A stretch of 64,000 nucleotides of DNA, taken from assembly GCF_988243305.1 (NCBI RefSeq), contig NZ_OZ547136.1; one strand, given 5' to 3'. The stretch's first letter is position 1. Each line of letters starts with the position of its first letter. The position numbers were made by a program, and so were the translations under genes. Below, in pieces: positions 1 to 33,773 of this stretch. The notes beneath the pieces were generated by a model. The model was not told the DNA's origin, ran no database searches, and saw only the letters and a program-made list of their open reading frames with translations.

Positions 1-150
1 GCATCACTGCTGCCGTGCGATAACGTCTTTGCCATCGAAAGCCGCTGGTATCGCGATAACCCTCTGGTGATCCGCGGACCAGGCGCAGGGCGCGATGTCA
101 CCGCCGGGGCGATTCAGTCGGATATCAACCGGCTGGCGCAGTTGTTGTAA
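1..150 (+). CDS. metL: Bifunctional aspartokinase II / homoserine dehydrogenase II, 3' end only (partial; start lies upstream of window)
   Basis: Frame 1 reads through to TAA at 148-150, giving a C-terminus ...RDNPLVIRGPGAGRDVTAGAIQSDINRLAQLL that I recognise as MetL; position immediately upstream of metF fits E. coli synteny. Confidence 0.8.
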   Translation, partial: ASLLPCDNVFAIESRWYRDNPLVIRGPGAGRDVTAGAIQSDINRLAQLL

Positions 151-1244
151 TCCTGAGCCAGAGAAAGCAGTATTTGCATAACGCGCCCTGCGGAAAGCGG
201 GGTGCTGTGAGTAAATACTGCTTGTTTATGTAGCCAGTCGATAAAATGTCTGCTGGTTGCTAAAGAGAGCATTTCAGCTTTGCTGATATTTCCGCCCGTT
301 AATGCACATACCATTTTACGATTTTTTCCCTGAACCCAGAGTTGCCACTGATTTTTCCACCAGCCGTGATAAGTTGTTCCCTGAAAACGCCAGGGCATAT
401 TATCGGTATCGTCAGCTATTTCCTCTTCAATAAACCAAATCTCACCTTGCTGTTGGCGAAACAGATCAGCCCATGCCGTAATAATGGCACCTCTTAAAAA
501 ACACTCGTGTGAAATTACATGTGTTTTTACTGTAGGGAAGAGAATATTCAGTACTCTGAAATGCCCGTGTGCAGTGATAACCGGACGCAGAATAACACCT
601 TTAGCATTGCGTTTGAGCGCTGCGCTGCCATACTGAATTTCATCAAACTGACTGCGGCGTAGAAATTGTGCTTCGCGCATATCAACGCGTTGTACAATAT
701 TACTCTCGTGTAACTCTGGTTCTGCATTCCCTCTGTATCGATAATGCAGACTTTCTCCAGCCTGATGCTGCGTGTAATTAGTAGAAAGATGAAGAATATT
801 ACCGCGAAGAGCATCAAAACTGATTAAAACATACAGTTTCTGCCCGCTGCTGACTCCCTGAAATGGCACGAGAAAAGCAACCGTTTCGATTATTTCAGGA
901 GGCGTTATTTCTTTCTGATATTGTTTGGGTGTCCATACTTTTTTGCAGTTACGGCATTGAATGCGTTGCGAACCCTGTGGATTGTGACCATAACAAATCG
1001 TATCTGTACCATAACATACCGGGCAAAAATGGCCTTTCTCTGTTGCAAAAGTAGATAAGTGAACTGACAACCAGTCACGAAATTGTTGCTCGTCAAACAA
1101 CGGCGGGTAACTGCCACATGCCCGACAGTGCAATGCCGGATAACCCAGTCGATAGTCTGGCCAGCTGTAATCTGTCGAAGTTGGCTGCCCTAAATTACGG
1201 CAACCAAACGACTTGCAGGCATTAATCGTAAACAGAGTCGACAT
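114..1244 (-). CDS. Hypothetical cysteine-rich protein with two predicted N-terminal zinc ribbons (Cx4C...CxxC and CxxC...CxxC), possibly transposase-derived; function unknown
   Basis: 376-aa ORF with ATG start (1242-1244) and a GGTGA Shine-Dalgarno-like motif 5-6 nt upstream. Cys pairs at residues 10/15, 40/43, 74/77 and 97/100; the segment CPVCYG...GSQRIQCRNCKKVW resembles IS1595/ISXO2-type transposase zinc ribbons. No other motif recognised in the C-terminal ~260 aa. Not part of the K-12 gene order as I recall it. Confidence 0.7.
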   Translation of the reverse strand: MSTLFTINACKSFGCRNLGQPTSTDYSWPDYRLGYPALHCRACGSYPPLFDEQQFRDWLSVHLSTFATEKGHFCPVCYGTDTICYGHNPQGSQRIQCRNCKKVWTPKQYQKEITPPEIIETVAFLVPFQGVSSGQKLYVLISFDALRGNILHLSTNYTQHQAGESLHYRYRGNAEPELHESNIVQRVDMREAQFLRRSQFDEIQYGSAALKRNAKGVILRPVITAHGHFRVLNILFPTVKTHVISHECFLRGAIITAWADLFRQQQGEIWFIEEEIADDTDNMPWRFQGTTYHGWWKNQWQLWVQGKNRKMVCALTGGNISKAEMLSLATSRHFIDWLHKQAVFTHSTPLSAGRVMQILLSLAQDYNNCASRLISD

Positions 1245-1301
1245 ATATCACCAACGATTTCACAAGGTCGTTGATTTTGTCCGGCAACGCTCCCTTGTGG
1301 A

Positions 1302-1317
1302 TGTGATTGCTCTCACA
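1302..1317. promoter_or_regulatory. Candidate CRP (cAMP receptor protein) binding site, perfect consensus palindrome TGTGA-N6-TCACA
   Basis: tgtgattgctctcaca read directly in the divergent intergenic region; centre ~67 bp upstream of the 1377 ATG. Confidence 0.45.
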
Positions 1318-1376
1318 TAAATAACTCTTTCAGAACGTAATGTAGCAATCCTTTATCTCACTGGAAGGGATTGTTT

Positions 1377-2930
1377 ATGAAAATTAAAATGCTTGCTGCG
1401 GGTATCGCATTAACACTGTCGTTTTGGGCTTGCGCCAAAGATGTCACCATCATTTATACCAACGACCTCCATGCACATGTAGAGCCTTATAAAGTGCCGT
1501 GGATTGCTGACGGTAAACGAGATATTGGCGGCTGGGCAAATATCACTACGCTTGTTAAACAAGAAAAAGCTAAAAACAAAGCGACCTGGTTTTTTGATGC
1601 GGGTGACTATTTTACCGGGCCGTATATCAGCAGCCTGACTAAAGGCAAGGCGATTATCGATATTATGAATACCATGCCGTTCGATGCGGTCACTATAGGT
1701 AATCATGAATTTGATCACGGCTGGGACAACACATTATTACAGTTGAGTCAGGCAAAATTCCCGATTGTGCAGGGCAATGTTTTTTATCAGAACAGCAGTA
1801 AATCATTCTGGGATAAGCCCTATACCATCATTGAAAAAGACGGCGTGAAAATTGGCGTGATTGGTTTGCACGGTGTATTTGCCTTTAATGATACGGTATC
1901 TGCGGCAACGCGAGTGGGTATTGAGGCGCGTGATGAAATTAAATGGCTACAACGTTATATCGATGAACTCAAAGGCAAGGTTGATTTGACCGTTGCGCTG
2001 ATTCACGAAGGTGTTCCGGCCCGCCAGTCCAGTATGGGGGGCACAGATGTGCGCCGCGCACTGGATAAAGATATTCAGACGGCAAGTCAGGTGAAAGGGC
2101 TGGATATTTTGATCACCGGGCATGCACATGTGGGTACGCCGGAACCGATTAAAGTCGGCAATACGCTCATCCTCTCCACTGACAGCGGCGGGATTGATGT
2201 GGGCAAACTGGTTCTCGACTACAAAGAGAAGCCGCATGATTTTACGGTGAAAAACTTCGAGCTTAAAACCATTTACGCCGACGAGTGGAAGCCCGATCCG
2301 CAAACGAAACAGGTGATCGACGGCTGGAATAAAAAGCTTGATGAAGTGGTGCAACAAACGGTCGCGAAATCGCCGGTTGAATTAAAACGTGCCTATGGTG
2401 AATCGGCTTCCCTCGGGAACCTGGCGGCGGACGCTTTACTGGTAGCGGCGGGTAAAAACACCCAATTGGCGTTAACCAACTCTGGCGGTATTCGCAATGA
2501 GATCCCCGCAGGGGCGATTACGATGGGCGGCGTCATCAGTACCTTCCCGTTCCCCAATGAACTGGTGACGATGGAGCTCACAGGTAAACAATTACGCAGT
2601 TTGATGGAACACGGCGCAAGTTTAAGTAATGGCGTTTTACAGGTATCGAAAGGCCTGGAAATGAAGTACGACAGCAGCAAACCGGTTGGTCAGCGGGTAA
2701 TCACACTGACTCTGAATGGCAAACCCATTGAAGATGCGACGATTTACCACATTGCTACTCAGAGTTTCCTTGCTGATGGTGGAGATGGTTTTACCGCCTT
2801 TACCGAAGGGAAAGCGCGTAACACAACGGGCGGTTATTACGTTTATCACGCCGTGGTTGATTACTTCAAAGCGGGCAATACCATTACGGATGAACAGATC
2901 AACGGTATGCGCGTGAAAGATATCAAGTAA
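1377..2930 (+). CDS. Secreted (periplasmic) bifunctional metallophosphoesterase / 5'-nucleotidase-family protein (UshA/CpdB-like)
   Basis: ORF track 1371..2930 begins at TTG; ATG at 1377 with GGAAGGGA 8 nt upstream is the more likely start (~517 aa). N-terminal signal peptide [20 protein letters not shown]. Calcineurin-like phosphoesterase motifs [23 protein letters not shown]; C-terminal region with GNLAADALL and NSGGIR typical of the 5'-nucleotidase C-terminal domain. Confidence 0.85.
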
Positions 2931-2986
2931 AAGTACGTATTGAGTTGATTCATCTGTTTGTTACCAGTTGATTTTGCAGATCCAGT

Positions 2987-3016
2987 ATTCGGCCTACGCG
3001 AGGGCGCAGGCCGAAT
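2987..3016. repeat. GC-rich stem-loop (9-bp stem attcggcct / aggccgaat, 12-nt loop); REP-like or terminator-like
   Basis: Inverted repeat read directly; no clear T-run on either side. Confidence 0.35.
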
Positions 3017-3238
3017 CAGATGCCTTAGCATCACCATCCGGTGGCAGGACGTTGTTTTTCGAATAAGCCCAGGTGTCGCTGTGTTGTCAGAATATCAGTC
3101 AAAACGTGCGAGGTGGATTGCGCTATAGAGAAATCTTTTATCGCCTCTAATTAAGATGAGTTTTTTTCAACTTCCCTGATTTTTCCTCACCATCATTGGT
3201 CATTTTTCGGTTGACGCCCCTCGGCTTTTCCTTCATCT

Positions 3239-3270
3239 TTACATCTGGACGTCTAAATGGATAGATGTTC
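3239..3270 (+). promoter_or_regulatory. MetJ operator (tandem 8-bp met boxes) upstream of metF
   Basis: ggacgtct aaatggat agatgttc matches AGACGTCT-type met boxes; position 40-70 bp upstream of the metF start. Confidence 0.6.
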
Positions 3271-3308
3271 ACAACACAACATATAACTACAAGCGATTGA
3301 TGAGGTAA

Positions 3309-4202
<894 letters not shown>

Positions 4203-4476
4203 ATAGTGTGGCTTTTGTGAAAATCACACAGTGATCACAAATTTTAAACAGAGCACAAAATGCTGCCTCGAAATGAGGGCGGGAAAATAAGGGTGTCAGC
4301 CTTGTTTTCTCCCTCATTACTTGAAGGATATAAAGCTAAAACCCTTTTTTATAAAGCATTTGTCCGAATTCGGACATAATCAAAAAAGCTTAATTACGAT
4401 CAATTTGATCTACATCTCTTTAACCAACAATATGTAAGATCTCAACTATCGCATCCGTGGATTAATTCAATTATAA

Positions 4477-6711
<2,235 letters not shown>

Positions 6712-6720
6712 TCTGACCTT

Positions 6721-6760
6721 CTTCAGCGGCTGCCTTTCAGGCAGTCGCTGAAGTTTCTTT
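6721..6760 (+). terminator. Rho-independent terminator downstream of katG
   Basis: Hairpin cttcagcggctgcc-tttc-aggcagtcgctgaag followed by tttcttt. Confidence 0.6.
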
Positions 6761-6804
6761 ACCGGCGTATAGTGTCCACAGGAAAACTACACACTGGATC
6801 TCTC

Positions 6805-7710
6805 ATGTCTGCCGCAGGAAAGAGCAACCCACTGGCAATCAGTGGCCTGGTTGTGCTCACACTTATCTGGAGTTATAGCTGGATTTTCATGAAGCAAGTC
6901 ACCAGCTACATCGGTGCCTTCGACTTTACCGCCTTACGCTGCATTTTTGGCGCTCTCGTTTTATTCATCGTCCTTTTATTACGTGGTCGCGGAATGCGCC
7001 CGACGCCATTTAAATACACCTTAGCCATTGCCCTGTTACAAACCTGCGGGATGGTTGGTCTGGCGCAGTGGGCGCTGGTCAGCGGCGGAGCGGGGAAGGT
7101 GGCGATCCTGAGCTATACCATGCCGTTCTGGGTGGTGATTTTCGCCGCGTTGTTTCTCGGTGAACGCCTGCGACGTGGGCAATATTTCGCGATACTGATT
7201 GCCGCTTTCGGCTTATTTTTGGTGTTGCAGCCGTGGCAACTCGATTTCTCTTCGATGAAAAGTGCCATGCTGGCAATCCTCTCCGGTGTTAGTTGGGGGG
7301 CGAGCGCGATTGTTGCTAAACGTCTGTATGCCCGTCATCCGCGCGTGGATTTATTGTCGTTAACATCCTGGCAGATGCTGTATGCGGCGCTGGTGATGAG
7401 TGTGGTCGCTTTACTGGTGCCGCAACGTGAAATTGACTGGCAGCCTACCGTGTTCTGGGCGCTGGCCTACAGTGCGATTCTGGCGACGGCGCTGGCGTGG
7501 AGCTTATGGTTGTTTGTATTGAAAAACTTGCCTGCCAGTATTGCCAGTTTAAGCACACTGGCCGTTCCCGTTTGCGGCGTACTCTTTTCCTGGTGGCTGC
7601 TCGGTGAGAATCCGGGGGCCGTTGAAGGTAGCGGTATTGTGCTGATTGTGCTGGCACTGGCGCTGGTGAGCCGTAAGAAAAAAGAAGCTGTCAGTGTAAA
7701 AAGCATCTGA
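6805..7710 (+). CDS. yijE: EamA/DMT-family inner membrane transporter
   Basis: ORF 6772..7710; ATG at 6805 gives ~301 aa; multiple hydrophobic helices; synteny. Confidence 0.85.
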
Positions 7711-7736
7711 ATTTTTTCTTCATGTGGGGCGATCGC

Positions 7737-8354
7737 TTATTTAACAAAATACCGATAGTGCCCCACCATCCGCCAGCTAAACAGCACGTCTTCTTCCTGC
7801 GCGCCTGCGCCAATGTTATGTATCACCAGCGGCGTACCGTCGCGGGCACAGCCATCTGACACCACCCCAATATGCGCCAGCCCGTTATCTAATCGCCAGG
7901 AGACAATATCGCCCGCTTGATAATCACCGGGGTTCTTGCTGGTGGGGCGTGTTTTATCATGGCGGCTAAACCAGGTTTCCAGATTAGGCACCCGACGGTG
8001 ATCGATGTTGCTGTCCGGGCGCTTTAACTGCCATTTTTGCGGGTACTCAGCAAAATTCTTCGCCATATCTTCGTGAACCAGTTTCTGCAAATCGACCTTC
8101 TGGCTGCGCAAGGCGCGGATCACCACATCGGAACATACGCCGCGTTCTTGCGGGACATCACCGCCAGGATAGGTAAGCTGCACATACGCCGGATCGTAAA
8201 ATAGCGTGCTGCCGATTTGCTGTCTGGCACCGTCTGCGATGGCAAGGTTGGTGTTGGCCTGGATTTGTACCACGGTTGGTGGAACGGCGGGAGATTTTAA
8301 GGAGTGGCTGGTAAATGCCGTTAGCAGGCTGACCAGCGCCAGTGAAGCTTTCAT
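7737..8354 (-). CDS. yijF: DUF1287-family periplasmic protein
   Basis: 205-aa ORF with N-terminal signal peptide MKASLALVSLLTAF; synteny. Confidence 0.85.
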   Translation of the reverse strand: MKASLALVSLLTAFTSHSLKSPAVPPTVVQIQANTNLAIADGARQQIGSTLFYDPAYVQLTYPGGDVPQERGVCSDVVIRALRSQKVDLQKLVHEDMAKNFAEYPQKWQLKRPDSNIDHRRVPNLETWFSRHDKTRPTSKNPGDYQAGDIVSWRLDNGLAHIGVVSDGCARDGTPLVIHNIGAGAQEEDVLFSWRMVGHYRYFVK

Positions 8355-8502
8355 CTGGTTCGTCCGTGAAAATAAGAGTCACAGATTCGACCTTCCGGGC
8401 TAACGATTGTTCTGTAGAGAAAATGTCCAGAAGCGGATAAAAAATTCCTGAACAACGTGTGAGTTTCAGACGGGTGATAACGTATAAAAAGTGCTCGAAC
8501 AG

Positions 8503-8606
8503 TCCCCTCTCCCCTTTGGGGAGAGGGTTAGGGTGAGGGGAACAGGCCAGCTCCGGGGCGAATATTTACCCTCACCCCGACCCTCTCCCTGAAAGGGCGA
8601 GGGGGA
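8503..8606. repeat. GC-rich palindromic intergenic repeat cluster (BIME/boxC-like), containing the unit GGGGAGAGGGTTAGGGTGAGGG and its inverted partner
   Basis: cccctctcccc/ggggagaggg hairpin and ccctcaccccgaccctctccctgaaagggcgaggggg read directly; the same 37-bp module recurs at 24114-24150. Confidence 0.6.
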
Positions 8607-8684
8607 AAAACATGCCCGCAGTGACGAGTGAGCCACTTTGCCTGCACTCTCAAACTCCCGGACAAGCCGGGAGTTTGGAGTAGG

Positions 8685-9788
8685 TTATTCCCACTCTTGC
8701 AGGAAACGCTGACCGTACTGGTCGGCTACCAGCAGAGCGGCGTAAACCTGATCTGGCGTCGCGCCGCCAGGCATGTTGTGGATGGTTTCACCTTCTGCAC
8801 ATGCCGCTTCTGCCACAATTCGCATTTTCGCCGGGACATCTTCTTTAATATCCAGTTGAGCGAGAGTTATTGGCAAACCTACCGCATGGCTAAGTGCAGC
8901 TACGGTTTCGATTTCCTCAACCGGCGCGTTTTCCAGTACCAGCTGCGTCAGCGTACCGAATGCCACTTTTTCACCGTGATAATAGTGATGCGCGTCCGGG
9001 ATAGCGGTCAGGCCGTTATGCACCGCATGAGCCGCCGCCAGTCCGCCGCTTTCAAAACCAACGCCGCTTAAATAGGTGTTCGCTTCAATCACGCGTTCCA
9101 GCGCAGGGGTTACTACATGCTGTTCGGCGGCAAGCATCGCTTTTTCGCCTTCTTCCAGCAGAGTGTTGTAGCACAGTTCTGCCAGTGCCAGCGCCGCCTG
9201 GGTGCACTTGCCGCCCGCCATAGTGGTAGCGCCGCTACGGGAACAGGCGCGTGCTTCAAACCAGGTTGCCAGCGCATCGCCGATACCCGCCGCTAACAGA
9301 CGTGCAGGAGCGCCAGCGACGATTTTGGTGTCGACAATGACCATATTCGGGTTATTTGGCAACAGTAGATAGCGGTCAAACTCACCCTCATCGGTGTAGA
9401 TAACAGACAATGCGCTGCACGGTGCATCGGTAGAGGCGATAGTCGGTGCGATCGCTACCGGAACACCCATGAAATGTGCCAGTGCTTTGGCAGTATCGAG
9501 GGTTTTTCCGCCACCGATACCGAGAATTGCGCCACACTGCGCAGTCTCCGCGATGCCACGCAGACGGTCGATCTCATTTTGCGAACATTCACCGCCAAAC
9601 GGCGCAATTTCTACTACCAGTCCAGCATCTTTAAAGCTTTTCTCGACAGTGGATTGAGCAAAACCTAAAACAAATTTGTCACCCACCACTAACCAGCGTT
9701 CTGCCAGCGGCTTCAGGTATTCGCCCAGACGATTAATCACATCAGCGCCCTGGATGTATTTACCCGGTGATTGAATAATGTGGTCCAT
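8685..9788 (-). CDS. gldA: Glycerol dehydrogenase
   Basis: ORF 8685..9827; ATG at 9786-9788 gives 367 aa ([17 protein letters not shown]...); iron-containing alcohol dehydrogenase family. Confidence 0.93.
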
Positions 9789-9798
9789 AATTGCTCCT

Positions 9799-10461
9799 TT
9801 AGAGATGAGTAGTGCCAAATGCGGCATTCCAGTCGTGTTCGAACTTCTCTATAGCTGACTCTACCGCAGGGGTGTTGAGCATTTGTTGCGCTACATCTAA
9901 GGGCAGGGTGATGGATTCACATCCTGCCAGTAAACAGTCCAGCGCCTGACGCGGCGTTTTAAAGCTGGCCGCCAGCACCATGCTTTCTGGTGCGTGCATT
10001 TCTAACAGCGCTTGCAGCTCCTGAACCGTACGAATGCCGTCCCCGCCCTGGGCATCTACGCGGTTAACATACGGAGCAACGTATTTTGCCCCTGCCAGCG
10101 CGGCCAGTAACCCTTGTGCAGCACTGTACACTGCGGTGCCAAGCGTAGTAATACCCTCTTTTTTCAGCATCTTAATGGCGGCCAGACCTTCGGAAGTCAC
10201 CGGGATTTTCACCACAATGCCCGGAATGGCGTCGCGCAGGCGCTTCGCTTCTTCCACCATACCCTGCGCGTCACGACTCATAGTCTGAGCAAACAGAATG
10301 CCCTCATCACCAATCGCTTTTTGCAGACGCGGCAGAACTTCCCATATGGACTCCTTGCTGGCAGCGATAATGCTCGGGTTAGTTGTCACCCCGGCAATGG
10401 GGAATATGCGTGCCAGACGTTCGACTTCTGCGACGTTAGCGGTGTCCAGATACAGTTCCAT
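9799..10461 (-). CDS. fsaB: Fructose-6-phosphate aldolase 2
   Basis: 220-aa [16 protein letters not shown]...; transaldolase-like fold; synteny. Confidence 0.92.
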
Positions 10462-10472
10462 GATGTTTCCTT

Positions 10473-12974
10473 TTACAGTTCCAGTTCATGTTGCAGCAGG
10501 CTGGCGATAGCGTCGGCAGAGGCGGCGTTAACCAGCGCGTTACGGAATTCTTCGTGCATGATGCGGCGAGCGAGGCGCGAGAAAATGCGCATGTGCTGAT
10601 CGCCCGCAGCGTGTTTGTTCAGGGTTAACATAATGATGAATTGCGCTTCATCATCGCCCCAGCGCACCGGCGCTTGCAGACGCGCCACGCTGATGGTGGA
10701 TTGCTCAATGTGTTCTGATTTGCTGTGTGGAATGGCAAAACTAAAGCCCAGACCGGTAGAGAAAACGGCCTCGCGCGCCCATAAGTCGGCTTCCAGTTTA
10801 CGCGGATAGCGGCAGCGGCCCGCCAGCAGCAGGTTATCGGTCATGCCTTTGAGCACTTCTTCTTTGCTGCGCCAGTCACTTTCCAGCGTGATGCACTCGG
10901 CGGTGACCAGCGGTGCGTCCTGTTGGGTCATGCGGAATTGCGCCAGCAGGTGTTCCACTTCCAGCGAAGTACGGCAGGCCATTGCCTGGTTGAGCAACTT
11001 GCGGCACTCACGGCTATCAAGTTGCGCCATCCGAGCTTTCGCCGCCGGAATTGATGGTGCGCTCATGCTGAGTTCATCCAGCCCTAAGCCGACCAGCAAC
11101 GGCAGCACGGAACCTTTCGCTCCCAGCTCACCGCACAGACCAATCCATTTGCCCTGGCGATGCACCGCTTGCACGGCGTAATCGAGCGCCCGCAAGAATG
11201 CCGGATTCAGGCTGTTGTAGTGACGAGTAACCTTAGCGTTATCGCGATCCACTGCCAGCAGATATTGCGTCAGGTCATTACTACCAATACTAAAGAAATC
11301 AATCTCTTCACAGCATTGATCGATGATGAACATCACCGACGGCACTTCCAGCATGATGCCGAGCTGGATCTTCTCATCAAACGGAATGTGTTCGTTACGC
11401 AGTTGCTGTTTGGCTTCCGCCAGTTTTTCTTTCACCCATAAGATCTCTTCCATTGAAGAGATCATCGGGATCATGATTTTCAGGCTGCCGTGAGCGGAGG
11501 CACGGAGAATCGACCGTAGTTGTGTGGTAAATAACGACGCGTACTCTTCATAAATACGCACGGCGCGATAACCGAGGAACGGGTTTGCCTCTGCGGGAAT
11601 GTTCAGATAATCAACGGGTTTGTCACCGCCAATATCCATAGTGCGCACAATAATGCTGCGTCCGTTGGCGGACTCCAGCGCCTGACAAAAAATGTTGTAC
11701 AGCTCGCTTTCGCCCGGTGCACTGGTGCGATCCATATAGAGCATTTCAGTGCGGAATAAACCAACGCCTTCCGCACCATTGCCGAATGCGGCCTGCGCTT
11801 CCACGGAGTGAGCGATGTTAGCGGCAATTTCAATGCGGATACCGTCAGCGGTACGGGCTTGTTGGGTCAGCCAGACACGCTGTTGCTCACGCAGGGCGTC
11901 CTGTACGCGGGCTTCCTGCTGATAATAACGAGCTACGGCTTCCCCTGGCTCAACCACAATCGCCCCAGCGTTTCCGTCGATATAAATCGTTTGATGCTGC
12001 CACGGAGTGAGGGCATCAATATCCACACCAACCAGCGTCGGAATGTTGAACGAACGGGCAAGGATCACCGTATGTGAGGTGGTGCCGCCGCTTTTGAGCA
12101 ACAATCCTTTGAGGTGATTTTTATCCAGTTCGAGGAACTGGCTGGGGGTCAGTTCATCAGCCATACAAATGGCGGGCTGCGTCAGTTTGCCCGGTGCCGG
12201 GAAGCGTTGCTCACCGTAGATTTGCTGGAGTAACTGGAAGCAGACGTCGCGTACGTCCAGGGCGCGTTCTTGCAGGTAGCTGCTGCTGGAACGGGCGAAC
12301 TCTTCGCAGAAGTGGTGTGCACTGGCGACAATCGCTTCGGCACAGCTTAATCCCTCGCTGACGCCTGCCAGTAAGTGCTGACGTAAAGAAGTATCGCCAG
12401 CCAGGGATCGGTGAGCTTCCAGAATCGCGCTGGTGGCACCGTCGCTATCCAGCAGACGAAATTCAATGTTTTTCATCACCAGCGTCAGACCGTTTTCCAG
12501 TGCGGATTGTTCGGCGTCAACGCTTTTGGCAGCAGGAAGATTACCCAGCGCATTGAGATCTAAAGAAGAGATCGGCGTCAGAATGCCGCCTGCGCTACCG
12601 CTGCACACGGTGCGGGCGCGGATAATTTGCGGATTCAGATTGGTCAGTGAAACCGGCAGTGGTTCCAGTTCGTCAGATTTTACTTCCGCCAGCGGTGCGT
12701 CGCAGTGGGGGAATTCATCGCGCAGCCATTGGCTTAAACGCTGGTACGCTTCCTGTTCGTCTGCCCCGGAAATCAGTAACTGGCAGTTATCGCCCACCAG
12801 CGTATCGGTGCCAATCAGCGCAAGGGCGCTTTTGGCGTTGCCCTTGCGGTCAGTGCGCAGGTTATGCCACTCAATTTGTGATGAAAAAGTATTACACAGC
12901 GTTTCAACGTGGCTTGCCGGACGCGCATGTACGCCGTTAGGTAGCTCACAAATAAATTCCACAATCAGGGCCAT
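10473..12974 (-). CDS. ptsA: Multiphosphoryl transfer protein (PTS enzyme I-like with HPr and EIIA domains)
   Basis: 833-aa ORF; PEP-utilising enzyme motifs; synteny. Confidence 0.92.
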
Positions 12975-29909: not shown

Positions 29910-31292
29910 GCCATTTAGCGCAGCTACCCGATAGGCTTCCGCCATCGTCGGGTAGTTAAAGGTGGTGTTGACGAAGTACTCAATAGTGTTGCCGCCACCT
30001 TTCTGTTCCATAATCGCCTGACCGATATGAATAATTTCGGCAGCGCGCTCGCCAAAGCAGTGAATGCCCAGAATCTCTTTCGTTTCCCGATGGAACAAAA
30101 TTTTCAGCGTGCCCACGTTCATGCCGACGATTTGTGCGCGTGCCAGATGTTTGAACTGGGCGCGGCCCACTTCATATGGCACTTTCATCGCGGTCAGCTG
30201 CTGTTCGGTTTTGCCCACAGAGCTGATTTCCGGGATGGTGTAAATGCCGGTAGGGATATCTTCAATCAGATGTGCGTTGGCTTCACCTTTCACCAGCGCC
30301 TGCGCGGCAATGCGCCCCTGGTCATAGGCTGCCGACGCCAGACTCGGATAACCAATCACGTCGCCCACCGCGTAAACGTGCGGCTGCGCGGTCTGATACA
30401 TGCTGTTGACCTTCAGCTGTCCACGACTGTCAGTTTCCAGCCCAATGTTCTGTAACGCCAGCGAATCGGTATTACCCGTGCGACCGTTGGCATAGAGCAG
30501 ACAGTCAGCTTTCAGTTTTTTGCCCGACTTCAGATGCATGATCACACCGTCGTCACAGCCTTCGATCTTCTCGTACTCTTCGTTGTGACGAATCACTACG
30601 CCACTGTTCCAGAAGTGATAGGAGAGAGAATCTGACATCTCTTGATCGAGAAATGCCAGCAGGCGATCGCGGGTATTGATCAGATCCACTTTTACATCCA
30701 TACCGCGGAAGATCGACGCATATTCACAGCCGATCACTCCAGCACCATAGATAAGTACATGGCGCGGTTCGTGGTGCATGCTAAGAATTGAGTCGCTGTC
30801 GTAAATGCGTGGATGGGTGAAATCAACATCTGTTGGATGATATGGACGAGAGCCGCAAGCAATAACAAATTTTTCAGCGGTTAGTGTCTCGACGCTGCCG
30901 TCCGGGCAATCCAGCGCCAGCGTGTGCTCGTCAACAAAGCGAGCGTTCCCCTGCAATATTTCACAGTGATTACGTTCGTAAAATCCCTGACGCATGCGCG
31001 TTTGTTGATTAATCACGTTATCGGCATGGTTAAGGATATCGGCAAAAGAAGAGCGGAGCAGTCGCGAATGGTCGCTGTATAGTGGGTTTTGATTAAATTC
31101 TATAATGCGGCTGACGGCGTGACGGAGAGCTTTCGACGGGATGGTACCCCAGTGGGTGCAACCGCCGCCAACATTTTGATAACGCTCGATAACTGCGACG
31201 CGCGCACCTTGCTTAACCAGGCCCATTGCAGCGCCTTCGCCGCCGGGGCCGGAACCTATTACTATGGCATCGTAATCGTAGGAATGTGGCAT
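29892..31292 (-). CDS. sthA: Soluble pyridine nucleotide transhydrogenase
   Basis: 466-aa [26 protein letters not shown]...; FAD/NAD-binding motifs; 18-bp convergent overlap with oxyR. Confidence 0.95.
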
Positions 31293-31569
31293 GGTAGGGC
31301 TTACCTGTTCTTATACATAAAAGCAACAGAATGGTAACATTTTATCGCGGGTAAGCCAATTGATCCCCGTCATTTATCTGGCTATATCGTGAGCGGCCTT
31401 TGCTTTGTCTGTTTCTTACTTTTGACCTGAACGTTTTATTGGATTTTTATCGACGATACTCTCCGTTTAAGCGGCAGGTTTCCGTTGTACGTAAAAGAAC
31501 CGGCCAAAGAATTGCAGTAAATATGTTTTATTGCGTTACCGTTCATTCACAACACTGGAGCAATCCAGT

Positions 31570-32274
31570 ATGTTCATTCTCTGGTATAGTGCCAGCAGTA
31601 CTTTTGGCAAGGATTCAGACATCGTGATGGGCGTAAGAGCGCAACAAAAAGAAAAAACCCGCCGTTCGCTGGTGGAAGCCGCATTTAGCCAATTAAGTGC
31701 TGAACGCAGCTTCGCCAGCCTGAGTTTGCGTGAAGTGGCGCGTGAAGCGGGCATTGCTCCCACCTCTTTTTATCGGCATTTCCGCGACGTAGACGAACTG
31801 GGTCTGACCATGGTTGATGAGAGCGGTTTAATGCTACGCCAACTCATGCGCCAGGCGCGTCAGCGTATCGCCAAAGGCGGGAGTGTGATCCGTACCTCGG
31901 TCTCCACATTTATGGAGTTCATCGGTAATAATCCTAACGCCTTCCGGTTATTATTGCGGGAACGCTCCGGCACCTCCGCTGCGTTTCGTGCCGCCGTTGC
32001 GCGTGAAATTCAGCACTTCATTGCGGAACTTGCGGACTATCTGGAACTCGAAAACCATATGCCGCGTGCGTTTACTGAAGCGCAAGCCGAAGCCATGGTG
32101 ACGATTGTCTTCAGTGCGGGGGCCGAGGCGTTGGACGTCGGCGTCGAACAACGTCGGCAATTAGAAGAGCGACTGGTACTGCAACTGCGAATGATTTCGA
32201 AAGGGGCTTATTACTGGTATCGCCGTGAACAAGAGAAAACCGCAATTATTCCGGGAAATGTGAAGGACGAGTAA
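31570..32274 (+). CDS. fabR: TetR-family repressor of unsaturated fatty-acid biosynthesis
   Basis: ORF 31531..32274 begins at TTG; ATG at 31570 gives 234 aa; a further in-frame ATG (MGVRAQQ...) would give 215 aa, so the start is ambiguous. Confidence 0.85.
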
Positions 32275-32633
32275 TGAAACAAGCAAATCAAGATAGAGGT
32301 ACGCTGCTGCTGGCGCTGGTGGCTGGCTTATCGATTAATGGTACTTTCGCAGCGCTGTTTAGCTCCATTGTGCCATTTTCTGTATTCCCGATTATTTCCC
32401 TGGTGCTGACGGTTTATTGCCTGCATCAACGTTATCTTAATCGCACCATGCCGGTAGGCTTGCCGGGTCTGGCTGCTGCCTGTTTTATTCTCGGCGTACT
32501 GCTGTACAGCACGGTAGTTCGTGCGGAGTATCCGGATATCGGCTCTAACTTCTTCCCGGCAGTACTCTCCGTCATTATGGTGTTCTGGATTGGCGCGAAG
32601 ATGCGTAACCGTAAGCAGGAAGTTGCTGAGTAA
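32274..32633 (+). CDS. yijD: DUF1422 inner membrane protein
   Basis: 119-aa hydrophobic ORF; start overlaps the fabR stop; synteny. Confidence 0.85.
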
Positions 32634-32672
32634 TCGGAATCATGCCGGATGCTGATGCATCCGGCATGGGTT

Positions 32673-33773
32673 TTACTTCGCGGTCAGTAATACGCCGCAC
32701 TCCATATGGTGCGTGTAGGGGAACTGATCAAACAGAGCCAGACGTTCAACCTTGTGCGTCTGGCTTAATGTTTCCAGATTCTTGCATAACGTTTCCGGAT
32801 TGCAGGAGATATACAGAATACGTGGATACGCCTGCACCATTTTCTCGGTTTCACCGTCCAGACCGCTGCGTGGTGGGTCGACAAAAATGGTTTCGCACTG
32901 ATAACTCTTTAAATCGATCCCTTGCAGGCGGTTAAACTCGCGTACGCCATTCATCGCCTGAGTAAATTCTTCTGCCGCCATACGAATAATTTGTACGTTA
33001 TCAATATGGTTAGCGGCAATGTTGTATTGCGCGGCAGCGACCGACGGCTTAGCGATTTCGGTGGCTAATACCCGATCAAAATTGCGCGCCAGTGCTAATG
33101 AAAAGTTACCGTTGCCGCAGTACAGCTCCAGTAAATCGCCTTTTGAGCCTTTGGTTACGTCCAGCGCCCATTCCAGCATCTGAATATTCATCGCCGCGTT
33201 CGGCTGGGTAAAGCTGTTTTCTACCTGACGGTAGATCATCTCTTTCCCTGCGACCGGCAGACGTTCATCGATGTAATCTTGATCCAGCTCGATTTTGGTT
33301 TTCGTTGCCCGACCAATCAGATGCACATTCAGATTCTGCGCTCGCAGTGCATCGCGCAGGGCTTCCGCTTCCTGACGCCACTCATCATCCAGCTTCTTAT
33401 GGTACAGCAGGGAAACCACCGCCTGATTACTCAGCGTGGTGAGGTAATCAATCTGGAACAACTTGTGGCGCAGAACGGGATTATTACGCACACCCGCAAT
33501 CATCGCCGTCATCAACTGGTTGATAAGTTCACTGGCGGCGGGGAAGCTATCCACGCGGATGCGGCTTTTGGTTTGTTGATCGAAAATGATGTGATACAGG
33601 TCATCGCCATCGTGCCAGATGCGGAACTCCGCACGCATCCGGTAATGACTGACCGGCGAGCGAAACACTTCCGGAACCAGGTCAGAAAACGGTGCCATCA
33701 TACTTTGCAAACGTACCACTTTTTCGGCTAACTGCGCTTCATACTGTTCTGTTGGAAGGTGTTCGGGGGTCAT
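32673..33773 (-). CDS. trmA: tRNA (uracil54-C5)-methyltransferase
   Basis: 366-aa [32 protein letters not shown]... Confidence 0.94.

Follow-up and report, generated by a model that had tools for sequence, protein, structure and literature searches.

A conserved pair of a predicted periplasmic nucleotidase and an IS1-transposase-like protein between metL and metF of Escherichia coli, absent from K-12

Between metL and metF, the 64,000-nt stretch of contig NZ_OZ547136.1 (GCF_988243305.1) analysed here, called the window throughout, carries about 3 kb of strain-variable DNA with two divergently transcribed genes. One, NT5w, codes for a UshA-family 5′-nucleotidase/metallophosphoesterase, and the other, hyp, for a Cys-rich protein. 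In the list of open reading frames (ORFs), both the 376-codon Cys-rich frame on the minus strand and the nucleotidase frame on the plus strand stand exactly where a preliminary description of this DNA had placed them (Table 1). Judged by comparison across genomes, the two genes form a conserved, co-inherited functional unit. We are moderately confident that this is an old nucleotide-scavenging unit of the Enterobacteriaceae, controlled by CRP and with hyp as its dedicated regulator, that was lost from K-12-type E. coli. K-12 would then be the derived state, having lost a CRP-wired periplasmic nucleotide-scavenging unit that is kept by a third of E. coli, including lineages of extraintestinal pathogenic E. 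coli (ExPEC), and by Klebsiella and Citrobacter. The unit may matter where cells grow on extracellular DNA or nucleotides, as in gut, urine or blood.

The two genes are closely linked. A 5′-nucleotidase gene adjoins hyp in divergent orientation in all 34 loci with a readable flank, and in 33 of them this neighbour is an NT5w orthologue with 87–99% protein identity. In Enterobacter (five species), Pluralibacter, Silvania and Rahnella the two genes also adjoin each other, but elsewhere on the chromosome. Second copies occur at this other locus in three genomes, those of E. coli SCPM-O-B-8794, Escherichia sp. MOD1-EC7003 and Citrobacter sp. wls619, and the copies at the other locus are extended by NT5b, Tsx and NT5a. 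Neighbour-joining trees built for the two genes agree broadly with one another. Purifying selection acts on both, with ω of 0.10–0.17 for hyp and 0.02–0.09 for NT5w, hyp evolving several-fold faster. Whether the two genes belong together had been left unproven in the preliminary description. The constant adjacency, the congruent trees, the conserved spacer between them and the co-occurrence at a second locus now answer this in the affirmative on comparative evidence. In the two-copy genomes (L013 with L020, L014 with L039, L030 with L040) one copy sits at metL-metF and the two hyp alleles are about 70% identical; the second hyp of MOD1-EC7003 (L039) is truncated.

The 132-bp spacer from which both genes diverge (1245–1376) was aligned across 28 orthologous spacers from about 12 genera, and contains blocks as conserved as coding sequence. 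Its CRP-type site is the only perfect TGTGA-N6-TCACA in the 64 kb, where 0.04 would be expected, and is found at the same place in nearly all orthologous spacers, with at most one mismatch in Enterobacter. Candidate −10 elements lie on both sides of it: TAATGT is 31 bp from the centre of the CRP site in the direction of NT5w, and CAAAAT (minus strand, 1279–1274) is 33 bp from it in the direction of hyp. With start sites predicted from these elements, the spacing would be that of a class II CRP-dependent promoter in either direction. A scan for consensus sigma-70 promoters found none, which fits an activator-dependent promoter, and terminator-like matches were at chance level. No convincing CytR operator was recognised in the spacer by eye. 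CRP control of the unit is thus suggested by a single consensus site in a shared control region, by which the unit should respond to cAMP-CRP like the classical nucleoside-scavenging genes.

A second conserved feature of the spacer is the palindrome CAACGA-N10-TCGTTG, which covers the predicted transcription start of hyp and its 5′ untranslated region. All 28 spacers share the arm nearest to hyp without change (AAATCGTTGG when read on the hyp-sense, minus strand), while the 10-bp centre varies; sites of this type are expected by chance 0.12 times in the window. A reading as an RNA hairpin was tried and rejected. The folding energy is the same as that of shuffled sequences (z = −0.40) and the left-arm variants of Enterobacter are not compensated, which makes a protein operator the better reading of the palindrome.

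NT5w would act outside the cytoplasm. The 517-codon frame starts with ATG; from an in-frame TTG at 1371 upstream of it the frame would have 519 codons. Its product matches the Pfam families PF00149 (Metallophos, E = 4e-12) and PF02872 (5_nucleotid_C, residues 335–477, E = 5e-39), and the five metallophosphoesterase motifs DxH, GDxxG, GNHE, H and GHxH are all intact, at residues 30, 76, 108, 208 and 248. The N-terminus has the features of a Sec-type signal peptide (MKIK, a hydrophobic core and A-C/S-A before KD), kept in 32 orthologues. Cys19 is replaced by Ser in Citrobacter, which argues against a lipoprotein, and export to the periplasm is predicted. In its two-domain architecture, its five metal/catalytic motifs and its signal peptide, NT5w is like the UshA/CD73/NadN family. 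Nevertheless, it is only a distant relative of K-12 UshA, with a phmmer alignment that spans the N-terminal domain only (E = 7e-23), and its scores in the NCBIfam equivalogs of the UshA, NadN and CpdB groups are all under the cut-off. Over residues 19–517 NT5w has 98.6% identity to the chain in PDB entries 3IVD and 3IVE, which are named only "Nucleotidase" and whose crystallised construct begins at residue 20. By this identity the crystallised protein is the same protein with a handful of substitutions, from the B2 allele of the metL-metF locus. Presumably these entries come from structural genomics on CFT073, with c4898 as the target and uridine and cytidine as ligands in the crystals. The literature searched contained neither a paper nor a functional study on this nucleotidase.

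The partner protein is more unusual. Nothing significant was found for hyp in Pfam-A, and in NCBIfam the only match was IS1_IS1595_Zn at residues 74–105, with E = 2e-4 and under its cut-off. PHROGs gave only a weak zinc-ribbon "transposase" match, and a profile of the hyp family gave compositional zinc-finger matches only among PDB sequences. The family is small, with 119 representatives at 50% clustering among 1.84 billion proteins. An alignment of 50 members shows two four-Cys zinc ribbons, C10/C15/C40/C43 and, of the IS1 InsA type, C74/C77/C97/C100. In the C-terminal domain R197 and H228 are invariant, and H246, E247, N156, Y168, Y205, W296, W300 and N367 nearly so. The AlphaFold2 model of hyp has a pLDDT of 94.3 and a pTM of 0.93, with a low-confidence tail; the last 12 codons (37 nt, 114–150) are antisense to the end of metL. 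Structural comparison of this model assigns the C-terminal domain to the transposase/integrase RNase H-like fold, with PIWI/Argonaute-type RNase H folds among the weaker matches.

Profile comparison by hhalign relates the hyp family to IS1 InsA with 96.7% probability (E = 3e-10) over the zinc ribbon and helix-turn-helix (HTH) of InsA, and 8 of the 50 members match Pfam Zn_ribbon_InsA (PF03811) at E ≤ 1e-3. The InsA-like HTH is present only in long relatives of 400–530 aa; its columns are gapped in the enterobacterial subfamily to which the window's hyp belongs. For instance, the model of the long relative from Vibrio aquaticus (pLDDT 94.2) has three helices at 107–166, and in the model of the window's hyp the zinc ribbon (to about residue 104) passes straight to beta-1 at residue 118 without an HTH. 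The InsA-type second zinc ribbon and the RNase H-like C-terminal fold, together with the HTH of the long relatives, are what hyp shares with the IS1 transposase (InsA/InsAB′).

Otherwise hyp differs from the IS1 transposase in many ways. It has an extra N-terminal zinc ribbon, and no similarity between its family and IS1 InsB was detected by hhalign. A conserved DDE triad is missing from the family: an acidic residue stands at position 247 in every member, D201 (86%) and D144 (74%) are conserved only in part and lie away from the canonical places, and beta-1 has Thr or Ser at the position concerned. The gene is a single uninterrupted ORF without frameshift; for comparison, K-12 IS1A has overlapping insA and insB. 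It lacks terminal repeats, is present in single copy, keeps its synteny across genera, and its purifying selection holds out to saturation of synonymous sites. The single copy, fixed synteny, missing terminal repeats and purifying selection make hyp a domesticated IS1-like transposase and no insertion sequence (IS); its descent from an IS1 transposase is clear. Public names of hyp relatives include "cytoplasmic protein", "InsA N-terminal zinc ribbon domain-containing protein", "IS1 family transposase" and "transposase and inactivated derivatives", of which the label "IS1 family transposase" is misleading. What stands in databases unnamed or under such names would be a stably domesticated transposase whose neighbourhood indicates nucleoside metabolism in two gamma-proteobacterial orders. 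This offers a testable hypothesis of a new regulator family as well as a correction for genome annotation.

The neighbourhood in question is that of distant relatives. Ten of these, at 19–40% identity to hyp, were examined, nine of them with informative flanks (P0196 was left out, its contig being too short). Eight of the nine adjoin genes for an NT5 nucleotidase, Tsx, a CNT/NupG-type transporter, a PNP-family phosphorylase or a PF01676 metalloenzyme, which by a rough estimate, taking such genes as a fraction of a percent of a genome, is far beyond chance. P0123 and the L044 homologue (Citrobacter sp.) have a divergent NT5a-like nucleotidase gene. P0137 is divergent from genes for a CNT (NupC-type) transporter and a PNP_UDP_1 phosphorylase, and P0142 from an operon of a PF01676 metalloenzyme (possibly DeoB-type), a PNP_UDP_1 phosphorylase and a NupG-type symporter. 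For P0159, Tsx and a nucleotidase are 2–3 kb off. Three relatives from Vibrionaceae lie downstream of the gene concerned. P0162 (Vibrio aquaticus) follows a nucleotidase gene after 51 bp and has a CNT transporter gene at 4 kb; P0165 (Enterovibrio) follows, after 35 bp, a NadN-like nucleotidase gene that has its own perfect CRP site; and P0215 (Thaumasiovibrio) follows a PNP_UDP_1 phosphorylase gene after 41 bp. The ninth, P0148 (Raoultella), has no recognisable nucleoside gene nearby.

These observations suggest how the unit may work. Nucleotides do not cross the inner membrane. NT5w in the periplasm would dephosphorylate them to nucleosides and phosphate, and the nucleosides would be imported by the nucleoside transporters of the cell; this in vivo scavenging role is what its family and predicted location suggest. 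A long form of the module (B2/ExPEC, Enterobacter) would bring in two further nucleotidases and, in the outer membrane, a Tsx-type nucleoside channel. Under carbon scarcity cAMP-CRP would turn the unit on, with both divergent genes expressed from the one 132-bp control region. UshA, Tsx and the CRP/CytR nucleoside regulon are the established knowledge on which this picture of scavenging and CRP control is built. The product of hyp would serve as the dedicated regulator, binding the palindrome at its own start in autoregulation and perhaps also the block beside the CRP site. This role for hyp is deduced from the gene context, from the operator-like palindrome and from IS1 InsA, which is a DNA-binding repressor. 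More speculatively, the ex-catalytic RNase H-like domain might sense a nucleoside or nucleotide. Extended to the whole family, we tentatively suggest a new class of transcription factor derived from an IS1-type transposase, in which zinc ribbons (with an HTH in the long forms) would bind operators of nucleoside/nucleotide-scavenging genes and the ex-catalytic domain would sense a nucleoside or nucleotide, co-opted once and kept across Enterobacterales and Vibrionales. This wider proposal is possible rather than probable.

Several points weigh against a regulator. With the InsA-like HTH lost in the window's subfamily, DNA binding would need the zinc ribbons. The spacer motifs other than the CRP site, which are the candidate operators, were not found at the internal promoters of the long modules. 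The relatives in Vibrionaceae are co-directional with, and downstream of, the nucleotidase or phosphorylase gene, a layout that suits an operon partner as well as a regulator, and D144, D201 and E247, being partly or fully conserved, leave room for some catalytic activity. The HTH loss, these acidic residues and the operon-like layout make a non-transcriptional role the main rival. Here hyp would be an enzyme or a nucleic-acid-processing partner, for instance a zinc-ribbon nuclease of RNase H fold or a cytoplasmic protein acting on nucleotides. The RNase H-like fold is typical of nucleases as well as transposases, and the invariant R197 and H228 and the tight spacing of 35–51 bp in Vibrionaceae would be accommodated. 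Nevertheless, beta-1 lacks a conserved Asp at the canonical first position, and Pfam detects no catalytic domain of a nuclease or transposase. The divergent layout with a conserved palindrome over the gene's own start is typical of autoregulated transcription factors, and InsA, the nearest sequence relative of the N-terminal part of hyp, is itself the DNA-binding repressor mentioned above. We regard an enzymatic or other non-transcriptional role as unlikely, though worth keeping in mind.

The second question is how the segment came to lie between metL and metF. By the ORF list, orthologous RefSeq annotation and K-12 alignment, the metL stop is at 150, metF at 3312–4202 and katG at 4492–6711. 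In MG1655 only 348 bp separate the metL stop from the metF start, in agreement with the preliminary description, which had put the K-12 spacing at a few hundred bp and deduced some 3 kb of extra DNA. In junction alignments the homology with K-12 breaks off exactly at the metL stop codon and restarts at about 3155–3162, inside the interval of 2930–3200 that had been predicted for the right boundary. The stretch with the metF promoter and Met boxes is nearly as in K-12, with only about 4 substitutions. Where the window has about 3.0 kb, K-12 has about 195 bp of unrelated sequence with a REP-like (repetitive extragenic palindromic) element. The difference from K-12 is therefore a replacement and no clean insertion into an empty site. 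When the K-12 metL-metF gap was searched for leftovers of hyp or NT5w, REP-type matches were all that was found. The AT-richness that had been noticed by eye is genuine and modest: GC content is 0.463 for 151–3155 against 0.519 for the whole window, with 0.448 for hyp and 0.479 for NT5w, and at third codon positions 0.40 for hyp against 0.57 for metF.

The segment is strain-variable, as had been proposed. In a megablast of window positions 1–3400 against 5,426 complete E. coli genomes, with carriers defined by at least 80% coverage, 1,837 genomes (34%) carry it, with a median of one matching place per genome, and the remainder match the flanks only. The long form was seen in SCU-111, in the avian pathogenic E. 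coli strain APEC O1 and in ATCC 25922; its order is metL, then Tsx-like channel, NT5a, NT5b and hyp, all on the minus strand, then the divergent NT5w, then metF. The 4.6 kb specific to the long form is found in 659 genomes (12%). By subtraction, about 22% of E. coli have the short form, as in the window, and about 66% are K-12-like. In the B2 long form L003, the 232-bp gap between hyp and NT5b holds a CRP-like site with one mismatch, TGTGATCTTAGTAACA (5676–5691), and NT5b, NT5a and Tsx may be driven by a CRP-dependent promoter of their own.

Across genera the picture is one of constancy. A scan with a profile built from close relatives only, one genome per species, followed by tblastn mapping, found the divergent pair at the metL-metF site of nine genera: Escherichia (E. 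coli, E. whittamii and one further species), Pseudocitrobacter, Citrobacter (many species), Klebsiella (K. pneumoniae, K. oxytoca and K. spallanzanii), Kosakonia, Phytobacter, Superficieibacter, Kluyvera and Salmonella. In Salmonella enterica subsp. arizonae the pair is at metL-metF with a truncated hyp (L043, 8001–8729). No tRNA genes and no terminal or flanking direct or inverted repeats were found around the segment. The ORF list, which was not exhaustively annotated, contains no integrase gene and no recognisable active-transposase gene, the sole transposase-like gene being hyp. This synteny over nine genera and the missing tRNA genes, repeats and integrase gene make it most parsimonious that the segment is an old resident of the site that was lost or replaced in K-12-type lineages. 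The interpretation of the segment as an insertion, put forward in the preliminary description, was not supported and probably has the direction of the event wrong.

A recent origin would nevertheless explain some of the data, namely a genomic island acquired between metL and metF in some E. coli lineages. Several points favour it over ancestry at the site. The segment is patchy in E. coli, its GC and third-position GC are under those of neighbouring core genes and its GC is below the genome mean, and additional copies exist at a second locus. In both trees the hyp and NT5w alleles of Escherichia are nearer to the clade of the other locus than to the syntenic alleles of Citrobacter and Klebsiella. 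Compared with the B2 long form, the window has a synonymous divergence (dS) of 1.11 in hyp and 0.22 in the adjoining NT5w, a sharp step that implies a recombination breakpoint in or near the spacer. Exchange between genera is seen too. In Pseudocitrobacter vendiensis (L011, 6363–9131) identity to the window's proteins is 95% for hyp and 97% for NT5w, and just 94% for metL and metF, although hyp normally diverges much faster (62% between Citrobacter and the window, against 95% for metL). The P. vendiensis pair seems to have been exchanged between genera recently, by recombination in the flanking genes, and horizontal replacement by way of the conserved flanks has clearly happened at least sometimes. 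However, such exchange resembles homologous replacement rather than insertion of an element. The same genes are at the same site in nine genera, with clades that broadly follow taxonomy, and the K-12 site is not the clean empty site that an island would leave. Together with the missing tRNA, repeats and integrase gene, this makes a recently acquired island rather improbable. The E. coli metL-metF locus is a recombination mosaic of short, long and empty forms.

That hyp is a decaying IS remnant, an unrelated neighbour of the nucleotidase gene, is effectively refuted: relatives do bear transposase names and the Pfam and NCBIfam matches are weak, but the ORF is full-length and intact, with a dN/dS of 0.10–0.17, it is single-copy without terminal repeats, it keeps its nucleotidase neighbour at two loci with congruent trees, and relatives at 19–40% identity still adjoin nucleoside/nucleotide genes. 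We give almost no credence to an anti-phage or other conflict system acting by nucleotide depletion or degradation: nucleotide depletion is known in some defence systems, the locus is strain-variable and slightly AT-rich, and PIWI/Argonaute-type folds occur among the weaker structural matches of hyp, but neither protein matched a PADLOC family at E ≤ 0.1, NT5w is predicted from its signal peptide to be secreted and would hence deplete no cytoplasmic pool, the locus is syntenic across genera and not in defence islands, and the CRP-type promoter with the Tsx, NupC, NupG, PNP-family and PF01676 neighbours indicates nutrition.

Parts of this locus have been catalogued before. In a comparison of ExPEC and avian pathogenic genomes the region between metL and metF was listed as GR 31, which is the long form, and coordinated nucleoside degradation and transport was proposed from annotation, in the account given there without experiments (PMC12928451). 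The ORF table for GR 31 lists four Tsx/UshA-like ORFs only and leaves hyp unmentioned (PMC12928451). GR 31 occupies the same chromosomal site and has the same nucleotidase as the window. At 7.8 kb and with Tsx and three UshA-like ORFs, GR 31 represents the long form; the window is of the 3-kb short form at this site, and the two hyp proteins are only 77% identical. The impression that the pair was no described module therefore stands only in part: the variable region (GR 31) and the nucleotidase structure (3IVD/3IVE) are already known and the locus is ordinary accessory genome, whereas the Cys-rich partner and its linkage to the nucleotidase are not discussed in the GR 31 table. In the literature searched there was no description of the loss in K-12, of the two-gene unit, of the CRP-centred spacer or of an IS1-derived nature of the hyp family and its tie to nucleoside scavenging in Enterobacterales and Vibrionales, no experiment on hyp, and nothing relevant on STM4102-4104, c4894-c4898 or IS1/InsA-derived regulators.

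The unit can be compared with two better known systems. The genes tsx, cdd, udp, deo, nupC and nupG are the CRP-controlled, or CRP/CytR-controlled, nucleoside-scavenging genes of E. coli. The unit is like them in its consensus CRP site and in its partners from the same pathway (a Tsx paralogue in the long form; NupC/NupG-type, PNP-family and PF01676 proteins beside the distant relatives), but differs in having no convincing CytR operator and in having an unrelated partner protein of its own. Similarly, the TnpB-derived TldR repressors are bacterial transcription regulators derived from a transposase. In concept hyp is alike, an immobile transposon protein kept as a host gene beside genes that it possibly controls. 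However, its ancestor is different (IS1, of the DDE type, against IS200/605 TnpB), it has no guide RNA, and a regulatory function for hyp is itself a deduction.

Table 1. Features of the metL-metF region, in window coordinates.
Feature	Position	Strand	Remarks
hyp, annotated "cytoplasmic protein", 376 aa	114..1244	-	two zinc ribbons and RNase H-like domain (about residues 118–376)
Palindrome CAACGA-N10-TCGTTG	1252..1273	.	over predicted hyp transcription start and 5′ untranslated region; candidate operator
CRP-type site TGTGATTGCTCTCACA, perfect	1302..1317	.	centred between divergent hyp and NT5w
Block TTCAGAACGTAA (1329–1340), then candidate −10 TAATGT (1338–1343)	1329..1343	+	conserved in orthologous spacers
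NT5w, UshA-family 5′-nucleotidase/metallophosphoesterase, 517 aa	1377..2930	+	ATG start; Metallophos and 5_nucleotid_C domains
metL 3′ end	1..150	+	left flank; identical to K-12 up to the stop; variable segment starts right after it
Strain-variable segment, about 3.0 kb	151..3158	.	from K-12 junction alignments and E. coli genome comparison
REP-like hairpin, 13-nt arms, 4-nt loop	2987..3016	.	3′ of NT5w; probably transcript end or REP element
metF promoter and Met-box region	3163..3311	+	right flank; common to K-12; metF from 3312

Further observations concern the locus and its surroundings. Just 3′ of the metL stop, within the 3′ coding end of hyp, lies an imperfect 27-nt inverted repeat (165–223, 74% complementary, 5-nt loop) that may be the metL terminator. 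An 11-mer common to 348–358 and 3176–3186 was discarded as a flanking repeat, being at chance expectation, and Rfam at a permissive threshold gave no match in 1–4600. In Salmonella hyp is often truncated or fragmented, with chains of 202–260 aa, and serovar Wilhelmsburg has a full 374-aa copy; this suggests that pseudogenisation is ongoing there. The distance from NT5w to metF varies across genera from 0.4 to 4 kb and some carry extra genes in it, for instance a LysR-type regulator gene and a carboxymuconolactone-decarboxylase-family gene in Citrobacter freundii (L004, 4897–6272). The metL-metF site is a general hotspot of gene-content change. A 4.5-kb contig (L015) of a metagenome-assembled genome labelled Citrobacter sp. 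HRGM_Genome_0066 carries metF and NT5w 98% identical to those of E. coli and groups with the E. coli B2 allele; probably it belongs to Escherichia and was binned with Citrobacter by mistake. Against E. coli NY1601 the window is 100% identical over 30000–33500 and only 97.6% over 1–12000, with mismatches densest at 251–2000, which marks this part of the chromosome as a recombination mosaic. Finally, metL-metF was taken in the preliminary description for the only clearly non-core DNA of the window, but the core-looking region 30000–33500 (sthA-fabR-yijD-trmA) is covered to at least 80% in one place by only 3,916 of 5,425 E. coli genomes, and may contain a second strain-variable spot.

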